Shown here piece by piece: positions 1,197-8,006 of a DNA stretch of 64,000 bases. This DNA comes from Gemmatimonadota bacterium (GTDB lineage Bacteria; Gemmatimonadota; Gemmatimonadetes; Gemmatimonadales; Gemmatimonadaceae). The stretch lies in assembly GCA_040389905.1 (NCBI GenBank), contig JAZJZK010000007.1, forward strand, positions 223,492 to 287,491, read 5' to 3'. The notes beneath the pieces are model-generated. The model worked only from the letters and a program-made list of their open reading frames with translations, did not search any database and was not told the DNA's origin. The position numbers were made by a program, and so were the translations under genes. How positions within the stretch are numbered: the first letter of the stretch is position 1; each line of letters starts with the position of its first letter.

Positions 1197-2201
1197 GTGA
1201 TATCCAGCATGGAATCAACCACGCGAGTTGTCGTACGCGCCGCGCTCTACTACGCGGTGCTCATCGGCCTCGGTGTCGGGGTATGGCAACTGCTCCCGCA
1301 CGGCGGTGCGATGGCACCGGCGTCGCTCGACGCGCTGTTCGGCGTTGGGCCCGTGAACAGCACAAAGGAACTCCCCGGCGGATCGCTCGACGAAGTCACG
1401 TTGGCCATCTCTGTCGCCGTTGCAATGCTCGCGTCGGTATTGCTCGCGCTGCCGGTCGCGTGGGTCTATCTCCTGACGCGCTCGAAGCGCGGCTATCAAC
1501 AGTCCGTCGTCCAGCTGCTGATCATTCTCCCCCTCGTCGTTTCCGGAATCGTCCTGCTTGTCAAGTACAGCGTGGCACTCGCCTTCAGTCTCGCCGGTAT
1601 TGTCGCGGCGGTGCGATTTCGCAATACGCTCGATGACAGCAAGGACGCCGTGTACGTCTTTCTTGCGACCGCCGTCGGCCTCGCGTCGGCGGTGAATCTT
1701 CCAGTCGCTCTCGTCATTTCGATCGGCTTCAACGCGACCGTGCTCGTCCTCTGGTACACCGACTTCGGCAATGCCCCGGTCGAATTGGATGGCCGCATTG
1801 CGGAAAAGCGCCTCCGTCGAGCCAAGCAGCTGGCGCGCACCGGAACCTTCGTCGCTCGTATCGATGACGAAGTGTTCAAGAACATGACCCGCGACCAGCT
1901 CGAAGGCGTTGCGGAACGTGCGTGGAAACGCGCACACACCAACGATGATGACGCGCCGTCGTCGGAGAACGAGACACGCATTCGTCTGCGCACGGCGGAC
2001 GCGGAGGCGCTGCGCCGCATCATCGAACCCAAGCTGCAGGATTACACGAGACAGTGGCGCGCGGGGCCCACGACCACCGATGGCGGCGTGGAGACAATCG
2101 AGTACTACGTCCAACTGCGGAAGCGAACGCCCGCTGACGAACTGTTGTCGCTCGTTCGGGCCGCCGGCTCGTCGCAGATCATCGACTCGGAGGTGACCTG
2201 A
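1197..2201 (+). CDS. DUF4956-family membrane protein with C-terminal soluble (ACT-like) region
   Basis: SVALAFSLAGIVAAVRFRNTLDDSKDAVYVFLATAVGLASA is the DUF4956 hallmark; several TM helices; start could be ATG 1209. Confidence 0.85.
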   Translation: MISSMESTTRVVVRAALYYAVLIGLGVGVWQLLPHGGAMAPASLDALFGVGPVNSTKELPGGSLDEVTLAISVAVAMLASVLLALPVAWVYLLTRSKRGYQQSVVQLLIILPLVVSGIVLLVKYSVALAFSLAGIVAAVRFRNTLDDSKDAVYVFLATAVGLASAVNLPVALVISIGFNATVLVLWYTDFGNAPVELDGRIAEKRLRRAKQLARTGTFVARIDDEVFKNMTRDQLEGVAERAWKRAHTNDDDAPSSENETRIRLRTADAEALRRIIEPKLQDYTRQWRAGPTTTDGGVETIEYYVQLRKRTPADELLSLVRAAGSSQIIDSEVT

Positions 2202-3247
2202 TGAGGTACCACACCGCCGCACTGCTTCTGCTGTTGTTGTCGGCCCCAGGCGGCGCGCAAACAGCTCCGCCAATCGACACCACCGTGCCGCGGCTGTTCC
2301 GGAGCGAAGCGCCGCTCGCCATCACGCTCACCGCCAACATGAAGCAGTTGCGGGACGACCGCTCCGAGACCTCCCCATACCGGCCTGCGACAATCACGTA
2401 TATCGGCGCGGATGCGAAGCCCGTCACCGTGCCGCTCAAGGTGAAGACGCACGGCATCTGGCGGTTGAAGCACTGCGAGTTCCCGCCCCTCCGCTTCAAT
2501 TTTGCGAACAAGCAGGTGAAAGGCACGCTGTTCCACGACCTCGAGAAGCCAAAGGTCGTCAGCACCTGCAAGAACACCGATCAGCACGAGCAACTGGTGC
2601 TCAGAGAGATGCAGCTCTATCGCATCTACCGCACGCTGACGCCGGCGAGCCATCGCGTTCGCACGCTTCGGATTTCCTACGCCGACAGCGCGACCGGAAA
2701 AGTCGAAGCGACCCGCTACGGCTTCCTCTTCGAGGACCCCGACAAGGTCGCCGAGCGGTTGGGTGGCAAGATGAGCAAGGTGAAGGGCGCGAGCGCCTCG
2801 GACGTCGAGCCGGAACTGTATTCGCTCGTGTTCGCGTTCGAGTACTTCATCTCCAATCTGGATTTCTCGTTCAATGGGCTGCACAACGGGCAACTCGTCG
2901 TGAAACCCGACGCGTCGCCGCTGCTGCCGGTGCCGTACGACTTCGACTTCAGCGGTGCCGTCAACGCGCCATATGCCACGGTCGATGCCAGGCTCGGGAC
3001 CAAGAAGGTGCGAGAGCGATTGTTTCGGGGATACTGCGAACTCAAGGATGACTTTCCGGCGGCATTCCAGAAACTTCGCGACCGCAAGGATGCGATCTAC
3101 GCGCTCTATCGCGACGACGTCGGCAAATTGCTCGATCCGGGCACCGTGCGCGAGACACTCGAGTACTACGACGAGTTCTACGATCGCATCAAGACCGACA
3201 CGGATGCGGAGCGGAACGTGTGGTCTACCTGTGTGGGGCGGCGCTGA
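2201..3247 (+). CDS. Secreted protein, probable CotH-like/atypical kinase fold
   Basis: Signal peptide; KTHG..R..CEFPPL, FLFED, FEYFISNLDFS...LHN (catalytic-loop-like) and PVPYDFDFSG (DFG-like). TGATG coupling to the upstream gene. Confidence 0.65.
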   Translation: MRYHTAALLLLLLSAPGGAQTAPPIDTTVPRLFRSEAPLAITLTANMKQLRDDRSETSPYRPATITYIGADAKPVTVPLKVKTHGIWRLKHCEFPPLRFNFANKQVKGTLFHDLEKPKVVSTCKNTDQHEQLVLREMQLYRIYRTLTPASHRVRTLRISYADSATGKVEATRYGFLFEDPDKVAERLGGKMSKVKGASASDVEPELYSLVFAFEYFISNLDFSFNGLHNGQLVVKPDASPLLPVPYDFDFSGAVNAPYATVDARLGTKKVRERLFRGYCELKDDFPAAFQKLRDRKDAIYALYRDDVGKLLDPGTVRETLEYYDEFYDRIKTDTDAERNVWSTCVGRR

Positions 3248-5964
3248 CGAGCGCACCGAAGGACGCCGCGACTCCACGCATTGCCGTCCGGTACGAGCTC
3301 CGCTCGGCCGGCCAACTCGACGCCCTCGTGGCGGCGGAGTTGCCGGCCGGTGCGCGCGCCACGGCCGCGCGACGGACGATGCACCGAGACTTCTACATCG
3401 ACACGAAGGACGAAACGCTTCGGCGGCGCGGCGTCACCTGTCGCTTGCGGTTGGGGACGGACGATGCGCATCGCTTGTCACTCCGGATCGACGGCGCCGC
3501 CGGCGAGCGGCCGACGCGAGTGGACGACCGCGTGCGCTCCGCCACGCTCCGCGAGGCACTCGCTGAAAACACATCCGCGGGGCGACGGATCCGCGCGCTG
3601 ATCGATCCGGATGCTCTTATCGTCGTTCATGATCTCGAGGTCGAGCGATGGACGCGATTTGCATTTCCCGGCCTGCTGCGCGGTCCGCGGGTGGAATTGC
3701 ATTTCGATGCGATCACCATCCGGCAGCGAGACAGCGCGCGAACGTTCTACCAGTTGTGCGGACATCAGCGCCGTGGAGCCGGCACCGAGCTGGAGTCCAT
3801 TGCGTCGCTCTTCGAGCGACAATTCGCCGTGCGACCGGTGCCCGGAGACTTTCGCGAGCTCGTCGAGCTGTTGGCGCGATGGAAGCGCGACGGATCGGCG
3901 GCGGTGCAGCTGGAAGATACGGATGATCTCCGGTCGCACGATGGAGCACTCGGCGGATCGATTCTGCTGAACCCGGAACTCAGCCTCGTCGCCTTTCAGT
4001 GGCGCGTGCTGGCGATGGCGCAATATGACGTGACGCCGCTCCGTGAGCGCTTGAGATTCCTGGGCATCGTCACGAACAACATCGACGAACTCTACATGGT
4101 GCGCATGCCGGCACTCACCAGTGAATGGCGCGCGCGTGTTACCGAAGAGGTGGAGCGACTGTTGTCGGCCCAATCCGCGTGCGCTGCCGACTGCCTGCGT
4201 GAGGCAGAACGCCTGGGCGTGCACATCGTGAAGTGGGATGCGCTGACTGCTGCGGAGCGAGACGCGCTCAGCGACCTGTGTCGCGACGACATTCATCCGG
4301 GGCTCACGCCACTTGCCGTCACGCTGAGTCCCGGTCATCCGCTCCCACATCTCGCGCACCTCGGCCTCTCGCTTGCCGTTGTCTTTCGCCGCGACGAAGG
4401 CGGTCGGCCACACCTGGCCGAGTTCGAACTCCCATCGGATGTCGCACGACTCCTGCCGGTTCCCGGTCGCGCGTCCGACGTCATCGCCATTGAGGACGTG
4501 CTGCGCGCCAACGTGCACCTGCTGCACCCGAACGCGTACGTCGAAGGCGCATATCTCTTTCGTGTCACCCGCCGAGGCGACCTCGCGCTCGACGAGGAAG
4601 GGGCGGAGGATCTCCTCGTCGCGGTAGAGACGGCAACGGAGCGCCGTCCATACAATCCCGCCATTCGCGTGGAGGTCGAGCGGACGACGCCGTCTCTCGT
4701 GCGGGAGTTGATCCTCGAGAGTCTCCGGCGCGACGCGGTGTCGCAGGGGATGCTGCCCTGCGTCAACGATGTCCAGGTGGTCGACGGTCTTCTCGATCTC
4801 CGCTGCCTCGCCGAACTGCCGCTCCCCGCGCGCAGCGATCTGGAGTATCCACCGCTCGTGGGACGATCTCCGGTGGATGCACAGCGCTCGATGTTCGATG
4901 TTGTGCGCGGCGGTGACCTGCTCGTCCAACACCCATTCGACGCGTTCGATGCGACCGTTGTTCGTTTCGTTCGCGAGGCAGCCGACGATTCCGCGGTCAC
5001 GGCGATCAAGATCACACTGTATCGCGTCGGTGATCCCTCGCCGATCGTGGGTGCGTTGCTCGACGCGGCCAAGGCGGGGAAGCGCGTCGTTGCCTTTGTC
5101 GAGCTCAAGGCCCGTTTCGACGAAGAGCACAATGTCGCGTGGGCACGCGCCCTCGAACGCGCCGGCGGCAATGTTGTCTACGGCCTCGTTGGACTGAAGA
5201 CGCACGCGAAGGTCGCCCTGGTCGTCCGCAGGGAAGGGGAGAAGCTCCAGCGATACGTGCACGTCGGCACGGGGAACTACAACGCGCGCGCCGGCCGTCA
5301 GTACACCGACCTCAGTCTTTTCTCCGCACGCGATGACATCACGAGTGATATTGCGGACCTGTTCAACGAGTTGACCGGATCGTCTCGCGCGCCGAAAGGA
5401 CTCGCGCATGGCGCACTCGTGGCGCCGCATCAATTGCTGCCGGCGATGCTGGCGCTGATCGAACGGGAAACCGCGCACGCTCGGGCATCACGTTCCGCGT
5501 CGATTGCGATCAAGGTGAACGGCCTCACCGATCCCGAGATCATCGAGGCGCTCTATGAGGCGTCCGCCGCGGGCGTCCGCATCGACATGGTCGTGCGGGG
5601 CATCTGCACGCTGCGGCCGGGCCTCGAGCCGAGGTCCGCCAACATTCGCGTGGTGTCCGTGGTCGGACGCTTCCTCGAACATTCGCGCATCTACCGCTTC
5701 GCGAATGGTGGTGATCCGACGTACCTGATTGGCTCCGCGGATCTCCGTCCTCGGAACTTGCGCCGCCGCGTCGAGCTCCTCGTGCCGATCGCGAACGCGC
5801 GGCACCGGCAGCAATTGGACCGCATCCTGGATCTCTACCTCAACGACGCGACGGCATGGGAGATGGACGGGAACGGCAACTACCGGCAGCGAGTTGCCGG
5901 CGGCCCGGGGGCGCAGGAGATTCTGGCTCGGAGCGCTGACACCATTCTCGAGGGCGCGTCGTAA
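3220..5964 (+). CDS. ppk1: Polyphosphate kinase 1 with fused N-terminal CYTH-like domain
   Basis: PPK1 motifs TLYR, VELKARFDEE, KTHAK (phospho-His), YVHVGTGNYN, RFLEHSRIY, GSAD..RNL.RRVE; N-terminal ~230 aa contain DFYIDT.DE.LRRRGVTCRLR (CYTH-like). Start uncertain (GTG 3220 or CTG 3244). Confidence 0.9.
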   Translation: MVYLCGAALTSAPKDAATPRIAVRYELRSAGQLDALVAAELPAGARATAARRTMHRDFYIDTKDETLRRRGVTCRLRLGTDDAHRLSLRIDGAAGERPTRVDDRVRSATLREALAENTSAGRRIRALIDPDALIVVHDLEVERWTRFAFPGLLRGPRVELHFDAITIRQRDSARTFYQLCGHQRRGAGTELESIASLFERQFAVRPVPGDFRELVELLARWKRDGSAAVQLEDTDDLRSHDGALGGSILLNPELSLVAFQWRVLAMAQYDVTPLRERLRFLGIVTNNIDELYMVRMPALTSEWRARVTEEVERLLSAQSACAADCLREAERLGVHIVKWDALTAAERDALSDLCRDDIHPGLTPLAVTLSPGHPLPHLAHLGLSLAVVFRRDEGGRPHLAEFELPSDVARLLPVPGRASDVIAIEDVLRANVHLLHPNAYVEGAYLFRVTRRGDLALDEEGAEDLLVAVETATERRPYNPAIRVEVERTTPSLVRELILESLRRDAVSQGMLPCVNDVQVVDGLLDLRCLAELPLPARSDLEYPPLVGRSPVDAQRSMFDVVRGGDLLVQHPFDAFDATVVRFVREAADDSAVTAIKITLYRVGDPSPIVGALLDAAKAGKRVVAFVELKARFDEEHNVAWARALERAGGNVVYGLVGLKTHAKVALVVRREGEKLQRYVHVGTGNYNARAGRQYTDLSLFSARDDITSDIADLFNELTGSSRAPKGLAHGALVAPHQLLPAMLALIERETAHARASRSASIAIKVNGLTDPEIIEALYEASAAGVRIDMVVRGICTLRPGLEPRSANIRVVSVVGRFLEHSRIYRFANGGDPTYLIGSADLRPRNLRRRVELLVPIANARHRQQLDRILDLYLNDATAWEMDGNGNYRQRVAGGPGAQEILARSADTILEGAS

Positions 5965-5998: not shown

Positions 5999-6331
5999 AT
6001 GGCTCTTCCACATCTCTTTCTGGGCACGCTTCGCGAGCACTACCTCATGCTGTTCGGGGCTGCCGGTGTGATCGGAGTTGCGACGGGATTCGTCGGCTCG
6101 TGGATCGGTGCGTACTACGGTGCTCGCCGCGCCATTCGGGCGGCCCAACTCGAGCGCTCTCGCGAGACGGAAGTTGCGATGCAGCTGGCGCCCGTGATGC
6201 AGGCACTCGACGCGATTGCGCTCGAGGTCGAACGGGTGTCGGAGGGGCAACGCTTTGCGACGAAGATGCTCACTGAGCGGCAGCCGGTCATGCTGCCGCG
6301 GAGTGAACCGAGGAACATCACGCCGCACTGA
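5999..6331 (+). CDS. Small membrane-anchored coiled-coil hypothetical protein
   Basis: SD-like AAGGA before ATG; one TM helix, then LDAIALEVERVSEGQRFATKML. Confidence 0.7.
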   Translation: MALPHLFLGTLREHYLMLFGAAGVIGVATGFVGSWIGAYYGARRAIRAAQLERSRETEVAMQLAPVMQALDAIALEVERVSEGQRFATKMLTERQPVMLPRSEPRNITPH

Positions 6332-6588: not shown

Positions 6589-7068
6589 ATGCCCGACCTC
6601 CGCCACGAGATCAAACAAAGCAAACCGTTCTCGAGCCTCGAGCAGGAAGCGCTGCTCAGCCTCGAGCGTACGGCGGCGGTGCTCTTGCACGCGATGGCTG
6701 AGACCTTCAAGGGCCACGGAATTACGCCGACGCAGTACAACGTCCTCCGCATACTCCGCGGCGCCGGTCCTGACGGATTGTGCCGCAATGACATCCGCGA
6801 TCGCCTTGTGACGCAGGTGCCCGACGTCACTCGACTCCTCGATCGTCTCGAGGAGGCTCGCCTCGCGGAGCGGGAGCGCGCGTCCGACGACCGCCGAGTG
6901 GTGACAACGCGAATCACGGCCCAAGGGCTCGACCTCTTGCGAGGACTCGATGAACCCGTCACCCAGGCCCATCATCAGCAGTTCGGACATATGTCGCCCG
7001 ACCAACTGCGCTCACTGATCGACCTGCTCGCAGTCGCCCGATCAGCATCACGAGGAGAATCACAATGA
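6589..7068 (+). CDS. MarR-family transcriptional regulator
   Basis: ITPTQYNVLRILRG, VTRLLDRLE and DDRRVVTTRIT winged-helix motifs. Confidence 0.92.
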   Translation: MPDLRHEIKQSKPFSSLEQEALLSLERTAAVLLHAMAETFKGHGITPTQYNVLRILRGAGPDGLCRNDIRDRLVTQVPDVTRLLDRLEEARLAERERASDDRRVVTTRITAQGLDLLRGLDEPVTQAHHQQFGHMSPDQLRSLIDLLAVARSASRGESQ

Positions 7069-8006
7069 CCGACAGCCCGAGTTCTGACACCGCTGACGCG
7101 CTCGAGGACCGCGATCCCGTCATGGACGTCGGCGTTGCGCCGGCGGGTTGGCGCCTGCCGCCAGCGACGCGTTTGGGGCACGTCACGCTGCAGGTGGCCG
7201 ATCTATCCCGATCCATCGCGTACTACGGCACGGTGCTCGGCCTCACCGTCCTGTCGAAGACGGACGTAAGCGCAATTCTCGGCAGTGAGTACGACCGGAC
7301 GCCCCTCGTGGAGCTTCGCGAGCGCAAAGGCGCCTCGCCGATGCCGCATCATGGTCGTCTGGGGCTCTATCATTTTGCCATCCTGCTTCCTGACCGGGCG
7401 GCGCTCGGTCGCTTTATCACCCATCTCTCGGAACTCGGTCTGCGCGTTGGCGCATCCGATCATCTCGTGAGCGAGGCGCTGTACCTTCACGATCCGGACG
7501 GTCTGGGCATCGAAGTCTATCGCGACCGCCCACGCATTGAATGGCGCGCGGTCGACCGGGAGCTCGTGATGGCCAGCGAGCCGCTCGACCTCGCCGATGT
7601 CGCGCGCTCCGCCAATGGCCTTGCGTGGACGGGCATGCCCGCCGGCACAACGATGGGTCATGTTCACTTGCACGTCGCGGACCTCACACGCGCTGCGAGC
7701 TTCTATCACGATGGGCTCGGCCTCGACAAGATGGTGTGGACCTACCAAGGCGCGTTGTTCCTCGCGGCGGGTGGATACCATCATCACCTCGGCCTCAATA
7801 CCTGGGCGGGTCCGCGAGCTCCTCAGCCGACCGACGATGACGCGCGATTACTCGAGTGGCGCGTGTTGCTGCCGTCGAGCGAGGACTTGAGCGCCGCCGC
7901 CTCGAATCTGGTGGCTGGCCGTCATGACGTCATCGCTGACGGCGGCGACTTCCTTGCAACGGACCCATGGGGAACGTCCGTACGTCTCACGCGCACTCCG
8001 TGCTGA
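7065..8006 (+). CDS. VOC-family dioxygenase/glyoxalase (CatE-like)
   Basis: GLYHFAILLP, SDHLVSEALYLHDPDGLGIEVYRD, MGHVHLHV, GGYHHHLGLNTW; ATGA overlap with marR. Confidence 0.9.
   Translation: MTDSPSSDTADALEDRDPVMDVGVAPAGWRLPPATRLGHVTLQVADLSRSIAYYGTVLGLTVLSKTDVSAILGSEYDRTPLVELRERKGASPMPHHGRLGLYHFAILLPDRAALGRFITHLSELGLRVGASDHLVSEALYLHDPDGLGIEVYRDRPRIEWRAVDRELVMASEPLDLADVARSANGLAWTGMPAGTTMGHVHLHVADLTRAASFYHDGLGLDKMVWTYQGALFLAAGGYHHHLGLNTWAGPRAPQPTDDDARLLEWRVLLPSSEDLSAAASNLVAGRHDVIADGGDFLATDPWGTSVRLTRTPC

Follow-up and report, generated by a model that had tools for sequence, protein, structure and literature searches.

A three-gene module at positions 1197 to 5964 of the window, the 64,000 nt stretch of Gemmatimonadota DNA analysed here (contig JAZJZK010000007.1), was found to be a novel variant of a published, uncharacterised trio of VTC, DUF4956 and CotH genes, in which the polyphosphate (polyP) polymerase is PPK1. 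All three genes are on the forward strand. The first (1197..2201, starting at GTG 1197 or ATG 1209) encodes a DUF4956 inner-membrane protein of the long type (334 aa), the second (2201..3247) a likely exported protein of 348 aa, which belongs to a large family without a name and is predicted to adopt an atypical kinase fold of the CotH type, and the third (3244..5964) a CYTH-PPK1 fusion of 906 aa from CTG 3244 or 914 aa from GTG 3220. The touching or overlapping codons noted in an earlier, sequence-only reading of this DNA were confirmed, with the stop and start of genes 1 and 2 overlapping in TGATG (2199-2203) and genes 2 and 3 joined at CTGA (3244-3247). As the C-TGA junction is also present in close relatives, CTG 3244 is probably the start of gene 3. 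The window's genome carries an additional, housekeeping ppk1 adjoining a PHO4 transporter gene.

The product of gene 1 matched PF16316 over residues 85-188 (E 3.8e-9; 36.9 bits against a cut-off of 30.6), in agreement with the original domain call, and the match covers the N-terminal 109 of the 169 positions of the profile. PF16316 was matched by all 44 aligned relatives, among which FR and D residues following the fourth transmembrane (TM) segment are invariant. The hydropathy profile has five peaks above 1.7, to which inspection by eye adds a probable sixth, and suggests five to six TM helices and a cytoplasmic C-terminal domain. At E≤0.1, no DUF4956 member matched a membrane domain of eukaryotic VTC, and a sequence search of solved structures found no meaningful relative.

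Gene 2 had been read as encoding a kinase-like protein. Its product gave no match in Pfam or NCBIfam at E≤1; PF08757 (CotH) was matched at the same threshold by none of the 37 aligned members of its family, and is carried by just 11-17% of members in two look-alike Atlas clusters. Sequence searches against the PDB and against plasmids, and a genome scan with this protein as the lone query, also gave no match. The CotH atypical kinase fold is predicted from an AlphaFold model (pLDDT 82.8), for which B. cereus CotH was the best match (E 5e-8, TM 0.52) in the Foldseek search that the sequence-only reading had suggested, and comparison of the model with CotH gave Z 19.6 with 269 residues aligned at rmsd 3.2, the next best match having Z 12.8. 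The residues N219-x-D221, H228-N229 and Y246-D247-F-D249 are invariant in all 37 aligned sequences. Export is likely, as a Sec signal peptide of 19 aa is predicted at 2201..2257 (forward strand; read by eye from a basic start, a Leu run and small residues before Gln), and the N-termini of relatives resemble this region. Bacillus CotH (PDB 5JD9/5JDA) is the top structural match, over ~270 residues, and a probable site of action outside the cytoplasm is common to the protein, CotH and the secreted atypical kinases Fam20C and CtkA. The protein differs from CotH in an identity of 13-14%, the lack of a PF08757 match and an insertion in the catalytic loop. The family, which includes tandem paralogues and comprises 1,581 clusters at 50% identity (E≤1e-30), thereby gains a candidate fold.

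The third gene had been described as a PPK1 with an extra tunnel-type domain, and both parts were recovered. It matched TIGR03705 with 634 bits (cut-off 465.85) and, like bacterial PPK1 (E. coli, 1XDO), has all four Pfam domains (N, middle, C1 and C2) and intact catalytic residues (3967..5898, forward strand); it differs from an ordinary PPK1 in the added N-terminal CYTH domain and in being a second copy. All 13 active-site positions mapped via an alignment with 1XDO are kept, and at 12 of them no more than two of 55 proteins deviate; besides E. coli H435 and H592, they include ATP-site residues. H435 and H592, the catalytic pair of PPK1 (10.1101/567040), correspond to H662 and H821 of gene 3 (numbered from GTG 3220). 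In a tree built with FastTree, without support values, the module PPK1s group apart from the housekeeping copies. At least two PPK1 matches were found in 35 of the 46 genomes carrying CYTH-PPK1, and the fused copy was the sole match in 11.

The N-terminal part of gene 3 (3280..3888, forward strand) is a degenerate CYTH/triphosphate-tunnel domain. Its score of 21.4 bits is below the Pfam cut-off of 23.2 (PF01928), its Atlas model matched CYTH models with TM 0.74-0.77, and a profile built from 44 sequences matched E. coli YgiF (E 2.7e-5). In CYTH/TTM enzymes, the metal-binding glutamates are those of ExExK and of a C-terminal ExE. These glutamates are unconserved in alignments of 29 and 44 rows and are gone from the window, where QLCGH pairs with ELELE of YgiF (the N-terminal register being taken from the Pfam alignment and a variant at locus L160); the tunnel arginines are retained. 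Given this loss of glutamates, the CYTH domain was rejected as an active polymerase or phosphatase. The VTC domain PF09359 was matched neither by the gene 3 product nor anywhere in the window's genome. Relatives of 1,030-1,080 aa in other families have CYTH and a Nudix-like domain before PPK1, the latter read by eye and giving no Pfam or NCBIfam match. An assembly artefact as the source of the CYTH-PPK1 fusion was ruled out by its occurrence at 51 loci.

The linkage of gene 2's family with DUF4956 is far above chance, as DUF4956 lies within 1.5 kb in 43 of 94 loci against ~0.13 expected, a comparison in which kin are not independent. An exported kinase from either of two families was found near DUF4956 in 82 of 132 loci, and 47 of the 51 CYTH-PPK1 loci have DUF4956 within 6 kb or the kinase within 1.5 kb, though only 13 have both. 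The conservation presumed for the trio thus holds as linkage but not as an obligatory unit: the third gene at 58 loci with DUF4956 and the kinase is CYTH-PPK1 in 28 and bare PPK1 in nine, and 21 have no neighbouring PPK1. Several gene orders were seen among relatives. The ORF at 5999-6331 was rejected as a member of the module, being represented by 13 genes in 90 loci, from close relatives alone.

Single-ORF fusions of the DUF4956 TM part to PPK1 (924-942 aa) were detected in six genomes of three genera among 20 loci picked for long frames or absence of a known partner, with Pfam confirmation covering two. Polymerase and membrane domain, encoded by separate genes in the window, are thus fused in six relatives, which strengthens the tie between DUF4956 and PPK1 that had been proposed; at locus L307 the kinase gene lies immediately upstream of the fusion. 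All six fusions lack CYTH and the DUF4956 C-terminal domain. As CYTH is also missing from 9 of the 37 PPK1 genes adjoining DUF4956 and the kinase, it was rejected as an essential part, and with its glutamates lost the proposed hand-over through the CYTH tunnel is not supported as a required step. VTC was found in 15 of 251 genomes, in every case within ~3.3 kb of DUF4956, and none of these 15 is at a CYTH-PPK1 locus (coordinates compared by eye), indicating that two unrelated polyP polymerases partner DUF4956. The suspicion that PPK1 takes the position held by VTC in other DUF4956 loci was supported by the neighbourhood survey.

In Gram-positive pel loci, cotH and genes for a VTC-domain polyP polymerase and DUF4956 are accessory genes, represented by SIR_1592-1594 in S. 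intermedius (10.1101/768473, PMC12345266). The window has the same three roles, namely a DUF4956-type membrane protein, a cytoplasmic polyP polymerase and a secreted CotH-like kinase. However, the polymerase is PPK1 instead of VTC, the kinase, unlike that of the pel loci, falls outside Pfam CotH, and DUF4956 exceeds the short type adjoining VTC (loci L178 and L179) by ~110 aa. No pel genes were among the annotated neighbours of the module. Pel levels moved one way on deletion of SIR_1592 and the other way on deletion of SIR_1594, whereas no effect was reported for loss of the polymerase gene SIR_1593, and the authors did not succeed in finding such a trio beyond the Pel locus (PMC12345266). 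In a full-text literature search covering few subscription journals, no account of a module with DUF4956-PPK1 or CYTH-PPK1 came up.

In eukaryotes, the VTC complex (Vtc4/Vtc3/Vtc1) couples polyP synthesis to translocation. Like the DUF4956-PPK1 fusions of relatives, it has its polymerase attached to a membrane domain, and a tunnel-fold domain is common to VTC and the window, but in the window this domain is dead, the catalyst is PPK1, and matches to PF09359 and to the VTC membrane domain are absent from the module. VTC makes polyP as a membrane-integral complex (10.1101/567040).

The explanation tentatively preferred here, with somewhat less than an even chance of being correct, is that membrane-coupled polyP synthesis feeds an extracytoplasmic kinase. 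The dedicated second PPK1 would make polyP at DUF4956, which would hand it outward to the exported enzyme with the predicted CotH fold, and this kinase would take polyP as the donor for an acceptor that may be an envelope glycan, lipid or protein. As CYTH and the DUF4956 C-terminal domain both disappear in the DUF4956-PPK1 fusions, CYTH may be a dead polyP-binding or docking adaptor. This explanation is favoured by the DUF4956-PPK1 fusions, the two unrelated polymerases that partner DUF4956, the intact PPK1 active site, the separate grouping of the module PPK1s and the linkage to exported kinases. It is weakened by the loci that lack PPK1 or one of the partners, the pairing of the kinases with carriers, the missing match to a VTC membrane domain, the SIR_1593 deletion without reported effect and the genomes in which the fused copy is the sole PPK1 match. 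At loci without an adjacent PPK1, the housekeeping PPK1 would have to step in. The periplasm is generally regarded as free of ATP. The original interpretation, in which PPK1 makes polyP for translocation by DUF4956 to the kinase, is partly supported. The fusions and partner swaps, seen across the phylum, link DUF4956 to polyP synthesis and name candidate suppliers of the phosphoryl donor for exported CotH-type kinases, a question that becomes testable on small soluble proteins. If polyP is exported, a bacterial VTC-like machine would have been built twice, from unrelated enzymes.

The exported kinase families are also paired with homologues of TLC/NTT ATP/ADP carriers, in five fusions and, beside the kinase, in at least 12 of 107 kinase-Omp85 loci, so ATP may still be the donor. 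Homologues of the carriers known from free-living bacteria (PMC5381601) here occupy the place of DUF4956 beside or fused to the same kinase families, but no such carrier was found in the window's genome; the NTT fusions given in that paper include those to HEAT, cNBD, SAM-MTase and oxygenase, and the word kinase is absent from its main text. It is conceivable, though rather unlikely, that DUF4956 is itself a nucleotide conduit like NTT, with ATP passing out and ADP back to serve an exported kinase that uses ATP, and with the attached PPK1 regenerating ATP from polyP at the membrane. The PPK1 reaction is reversible, which would permit this, and the order at carrier loci L284, L285, L291 and L292 (Ser/Thr kinase, NTT, metallophosphoesterase, kinase-Omp85, NTT-HEAT) parallels that at DUF4956 locus L144 (Ser/Thr kinase, DUF4956, metallophosphoesterase, kinase-Omp85, CYTH-Nudix-PPK1). 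None of the 107 kinase-Omp85 loci has both DUF4956 and a carrier, the kinase motifs are common to proteins linked to either, and the 21 loci with DUF4956 and kinase but no PPK1 also fit a conduit. However, with cytoplasmic ATP plentiful, a conduit leaves unexplained the two unrelated polyP polymerases tied or fused to DUF4956, and a fused polymerase would presumably be unneeded by an ATP exporter. DUF4956 gave no match to carrier families, and PPK2 is the usual regenerator of ATP and GTP.

A phosphate-scavenging or signalling circuit without polymer export is likewise improbable. DUF4956, which would combine an MgtC-like membrane part and a regulatory domain, would detect or take up the phosphate set free by exported phosphatases and tune PPK1, and the kinase-fold protein would be a phosphotransferase, hydrolase or ligand binder. 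Such phosphatases recur near the module (51 copies, in a set of 90 loci, of a divergent gene of the PF01663 alkaline-phosphatase family, with metallophosphoesterases and phytase-like propellers), as do GGDEF, Ser/Thr kinase and response-regulator genes, and the DUF4956-PPK1 fusions adjoin CHAD, histidine-phosphatase, ppk1 and ppx genes. SIR_1592 has been described as MgtC-TM plus ACT (PMC12345266), and weak MgtC/SapB profile matches were seen in 1 of the 44 DUF4956 relatives (E 0.073) and in one short-type relative (E 0.019). However, the invariant kinase motifs and the fusion of the family to ATP-carrier homologues favour a donor-consuming kinase, the regulatory C-terminal domain is gone from the DUF4956-PPK1 fusions, and the PF01663 gene was not found by tblastn in the window's genome (84.6% complete). 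Loose clustering of phosphate-metabolism genes with no common machine would account for the absence of an adjacent DUF4956 at 51 of the 94 kinase loci and of the tested partner at 50 of the 132 DUF4956 loci, as well as for the tandem kinase paralogues, but is highly improbable given the stop/start overlaps, several gene orders, gene fusions and linkage far over chance.

A broader form of the preferred polyP-fed kinase is possible but doubtful. There would be two interchangeable periplasmic power supplies, ATP exported by NTT or polyP exported by DUF4956 from a docked or fused VTC or, convergently, PPK1, and CotH-fold kinases would have gained basic residues for polyP. Such a system would include a bacterial equivalent of the VTC polymerase-translocase that runs on PPK1, and its exported kinases would form a previously undescribed class that depends on polyP. 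An extra basic active-site residue in DUF4956-linked kinases, which also favours the preferred explanation, is seen in kinase-Omp85 proteins as an Arg preceding DxD (14 of 15 DUF4956-linked, 1 of 9 carrier-linked) and at beta-3 as Lys in 25 of 25 parsed DUF4956-linked kinases (10 of 35 were unparsed), where all four carrier-fused proteins from gene 2's family have Pro. As the distribution follows clades, with 8 of the 9 carrier-linked kinase-Omp85 rows forming one branch, these differences may be inherited rather than adaptive. Carrier- and DUF4956-linked kinase-Omp85 proteins have 77 conserved positions in common and no group-specific fixed difference at the thresholds used. Comparing the profiles of gene 2's family and of the kinase-Omp85 proteins gave a probability of 1.2%, and for the kinase-Omp85 model a Z of 13.7 was level with that for PI4KII (13.3). 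As the models of both families match CotH/PI4K/CtkA folds, the two may be related.

The three coupled open reading frames described in the sequence-only reading were all present in the forward strand of the window: gene 1 (1197–2201), encoding a DUF4956 membrane protein, gene 2 (2201–3247), encoding a probably exported protein with a predicted CotH-type kinase fold, and gene 3 (3244, or 3220, to 5964), encoding a CYTH-PPK1 fusion. ORF reading located a TGATG overlap between genes 1 and 2 and a CTGA overlap between genes 2 and 3. No sign of an insertion was found in the GC profile of the region, which is even at 61–66%, and the neighbours are ordinary, namely DUF1697 (565–1104), a MarR regulator (6589–7068) and a glyoxalase/VOC protein (7065–8006). 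A 110-aa small membrane-type ORF without a family match (5999–6331) follows the module in close relatives only. The window is part of contig C7 of a genome (G000) that is 84.6% complete, and its named relatives are Gemmatimonadota.

The gene 1 product matched DUF4956 in Pfam, and hydropathy indicated five clear hydrophobic segments and a probable sixth, followed by a soluble C-terminal domain. SIR_1592, its streptococcal counterpart, is an MgtC-type membrane domain with an ACT domain according to the available text of PMC12345266; the MgtC matches of DUF4956 proteins in our profile search were weak. The N-terminus of the gene 2 product, read from the sequence, resembles a signal peptide, and Pfam and NCBIfam profile searches returned no family match. 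With both aligners the top match of its structure model (pLDDT 82.8, built with 37 sequences) was Bacillus cereus CotH (one gave E 5e-8 at TM 0.52; the other gave Z 19.6 and rmsd 3.2 over 269 residues, with CtkA second at 12.8), and kinase-type motifs are invariant in the family alignment. By predicted fold this protein appears to work like CotH, yet it falls outside PF08757. The family is large, with 1,581 clusters matching at E<=1e-30, rising to 3,845 when the limit is relaxed to E<=0.001, and it has look-alikes in Bacteroidota and Acidobacteriota.

Gene 3 encodes a complete PPK1 with 13 of 13 mapped active-site positions present, and 12 of them show the same residue in 53 or more of the 55 proteins aligned (for the catalytic histidines and TTM background, see the available text of 10.1101/567040). 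A second, ordinary ppk1 in G000 adjoins a PHO4 transporter. The structure model and profile comparison identified the N-terminal domain of the gene 3 product as a CYTH fold, which retains tunnel arginines R48, R67, R69, R135 and R138. As the CYTH metal-binding glutamates are not conserved in alignments of 29 and 44 rows, and a second extra domain between CYTH and PPK1 in another family, Nudix-like by eye, is likewise degenerate, these additional domains have the look of phosphate-binding folds that are no longer active. One CYTH-Nudix-like protein (comparison locus L160:3576–5702) has a degenerate PPK1 part without the catalytic C domains and still adjoins DUF4956.

Close relatives were sampled as the 80 top-ranking of 524 loci in the genome collection; DUF4956 precedes the kinase in 60 of the 73 whose upstream flank reaches 800 nt or more. 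At the 58 DUF4956-kinase loci whose downstream flank is 800 nt or longer, the next gene encodes CYTH-PPK1 (28), PPK1 lacking CYTH (9) or neither (21). In a FastTree tree given without support values, the CYTH-less copies branch from within the CYTH-bearing group (row L090, labelled wrongly, is actually a CYTH fusion), suggesting repeated loss of CYTH from module PPK1s. The commonest further neighbour is a phosphatase gene of PF01663 in divergent orientation, with 51 copies across 90 loci. In most close relatives this alkaline-phosphatase-family gene, with a signal-like start, is divergent from DUF4956 (L064:3187–4761 and similar loci); it was not found in the 84.6% complete G000.

Of 251 genomes sampled from the phylum, 77 carry the kinase family, 108 DUF4956, 85 an Omp85 barrel joined to a kinase-like domain (kinase-Omp85), 89 TLC carrier homologues, 213 PPK1 and 15 VTC, an unrelated polyphosphate (polyP) polymerase. 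The CYTH profile matched 54, with 46 strong matches counted and eight weak-only matches dropped. As kin are not independent, these figures are descriptions and not tests. Linkage was scored after tandem, weak and fragment rows had been merged or dropped, using 94 of 96 kinase rows, 132 of 134 DUF4956 rows, 51 CYTH loci and 107 kinase-Omp85 loci; unpublished genomes G012, G103, G199 and G224 contribute single rows each to the tallies, and no claim depends on them alone. CYTH-PPK1 was near DUF4956 or the kinase at 47 of 51 loci, with both partners at only 13, and many remaining loci carry, in place of the soluble kinase, an Omp85 barrel that bears a further domain at its N-terminus. The model of this domain likewise matches CotH/PI4K/CtkA folds, and kinase-Omp85 at CYTH-PPK1 loci is often accompanied by a metallophosphoesterase and a phytase-like propeller. 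Each of the 15 VTC loci is within about 3.3 kb of DUF4956, none being a CYTH-PPK1 locus, and Pfam-confirmed VTC, DUF4956 and CotH genes occur together in L178 and L179.

The three-gene set is a real, conserved and uncharacterised module, a variant of the VTC/DUF4956/CotH trio in which the polymerase is PPK1 instead of VTC. The cotH/polymerase/DUF4956 genes are uncharacterised pel accessory genes in the available text of 10.1101/768473 and PMC12345266, and no description of a PPK1-based version was found in the literature searched.

A single gene joins the DUF4956 membrane part, without its C-terminal domain, to a CYTH-less PPK1 in 6 of 20 further loci; the L307 copy has the kinase gene immediately before it. 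These fusion genes (L304–L309; e.g. L307:3259–6072) lie tail-to-tail with CHAD, histidine-phosphatase, ppk1 and ppx genes. The gene 2 kinase family is also fused behind a TLC/NTT carrier, an ATP/ADP-carrier homologue, in protein record P0122 and at four of the 80 metagenome loci (single ORFs at L204:3–1754, L206:2961–5960, L207:11–2428 and L208:961–3444; for other NTT fusions, see the available text of PMC5381601), with Pro replacing the beta-3 Lys in these members. Kinase-Omp85 was near DUF4956 at 38 of 107 loci and near the carrier at 12 (chance expectation about 0.4 and 0.15, respectively), near both at none and near neither at 57, the 12 being a lower bound as 3 of 12 fetched 'neither' loci had carrier pairs. 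With a more sensitive profile, no carrier was found in the DUF4956/kinase sets (40 and 90 loci) or in G000. Given the fusions and the lack, among the 107 loci, of any with both partners, it looks as if a phosphoryl donor is supplied either by DUF4956 with its polymerase or by the carrier pair. Operons of a Ser/Thr kinase, NTT, sometimes a metallophosphoesterase, kinase-Omp85 and NTT-HEAT (L284–L289, L291, L292 and L297) mirror the DUF4956/PPK1 operons.

The sequence-only reading proposed that polyP made by PPK1 passes through the CYTH tunnel to DUF4956 for translocation to the periplasmic kinase-fold protein. Its parts were borne out and its theme is probably correct, but CYTH is not a necessary relay, as it is missing from 9 of the 37 PPK1 genes adjacent to DUF4956 and the kinase, and from the fusions. 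In the mechanism tentatively favoured here, polyP made by the polymerase tied to DUF4956 would be delivered as the phosphoryl donor for the kinase. The main ground is that DUF4956 is coupled to polyP polymerases of two unrelated kinds, in one case through gene fusion, and an ATP exporter would need neither. Basic residues in DUF4956-linked kinases agree with polyP delivery, but track clades.

Counting against polyP delivery, PPK1 is frequently missing from the locus, and the carrier-linked kinases retain the same 77 conserved positions. The deletion phenotypes of Streptococcus intermedius point the same way, as the available text of PMC12345266 reports none for the polymerase and opposite effects on Pel levels for the membrane protein and CotH. 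Supply of ATP by the DUF4956 module and a regulatory or scavenging circuit each have a low, and equal, probability; mere loose clustering of the genes is less likely still.

G000 itself encodes, on contig C50 (L184:5657–7426), a true CotH (PF08757) that stands alone and carries an Ig-like domain. In L187, L189 and L283, two or three paralogues of the gene 2 kinase family stand in tandem with DUF4956 not adjacent, and in one Longimicrobiales record (P0121) the family is fused to an ApbE flavin transferase, which may be a read-through.
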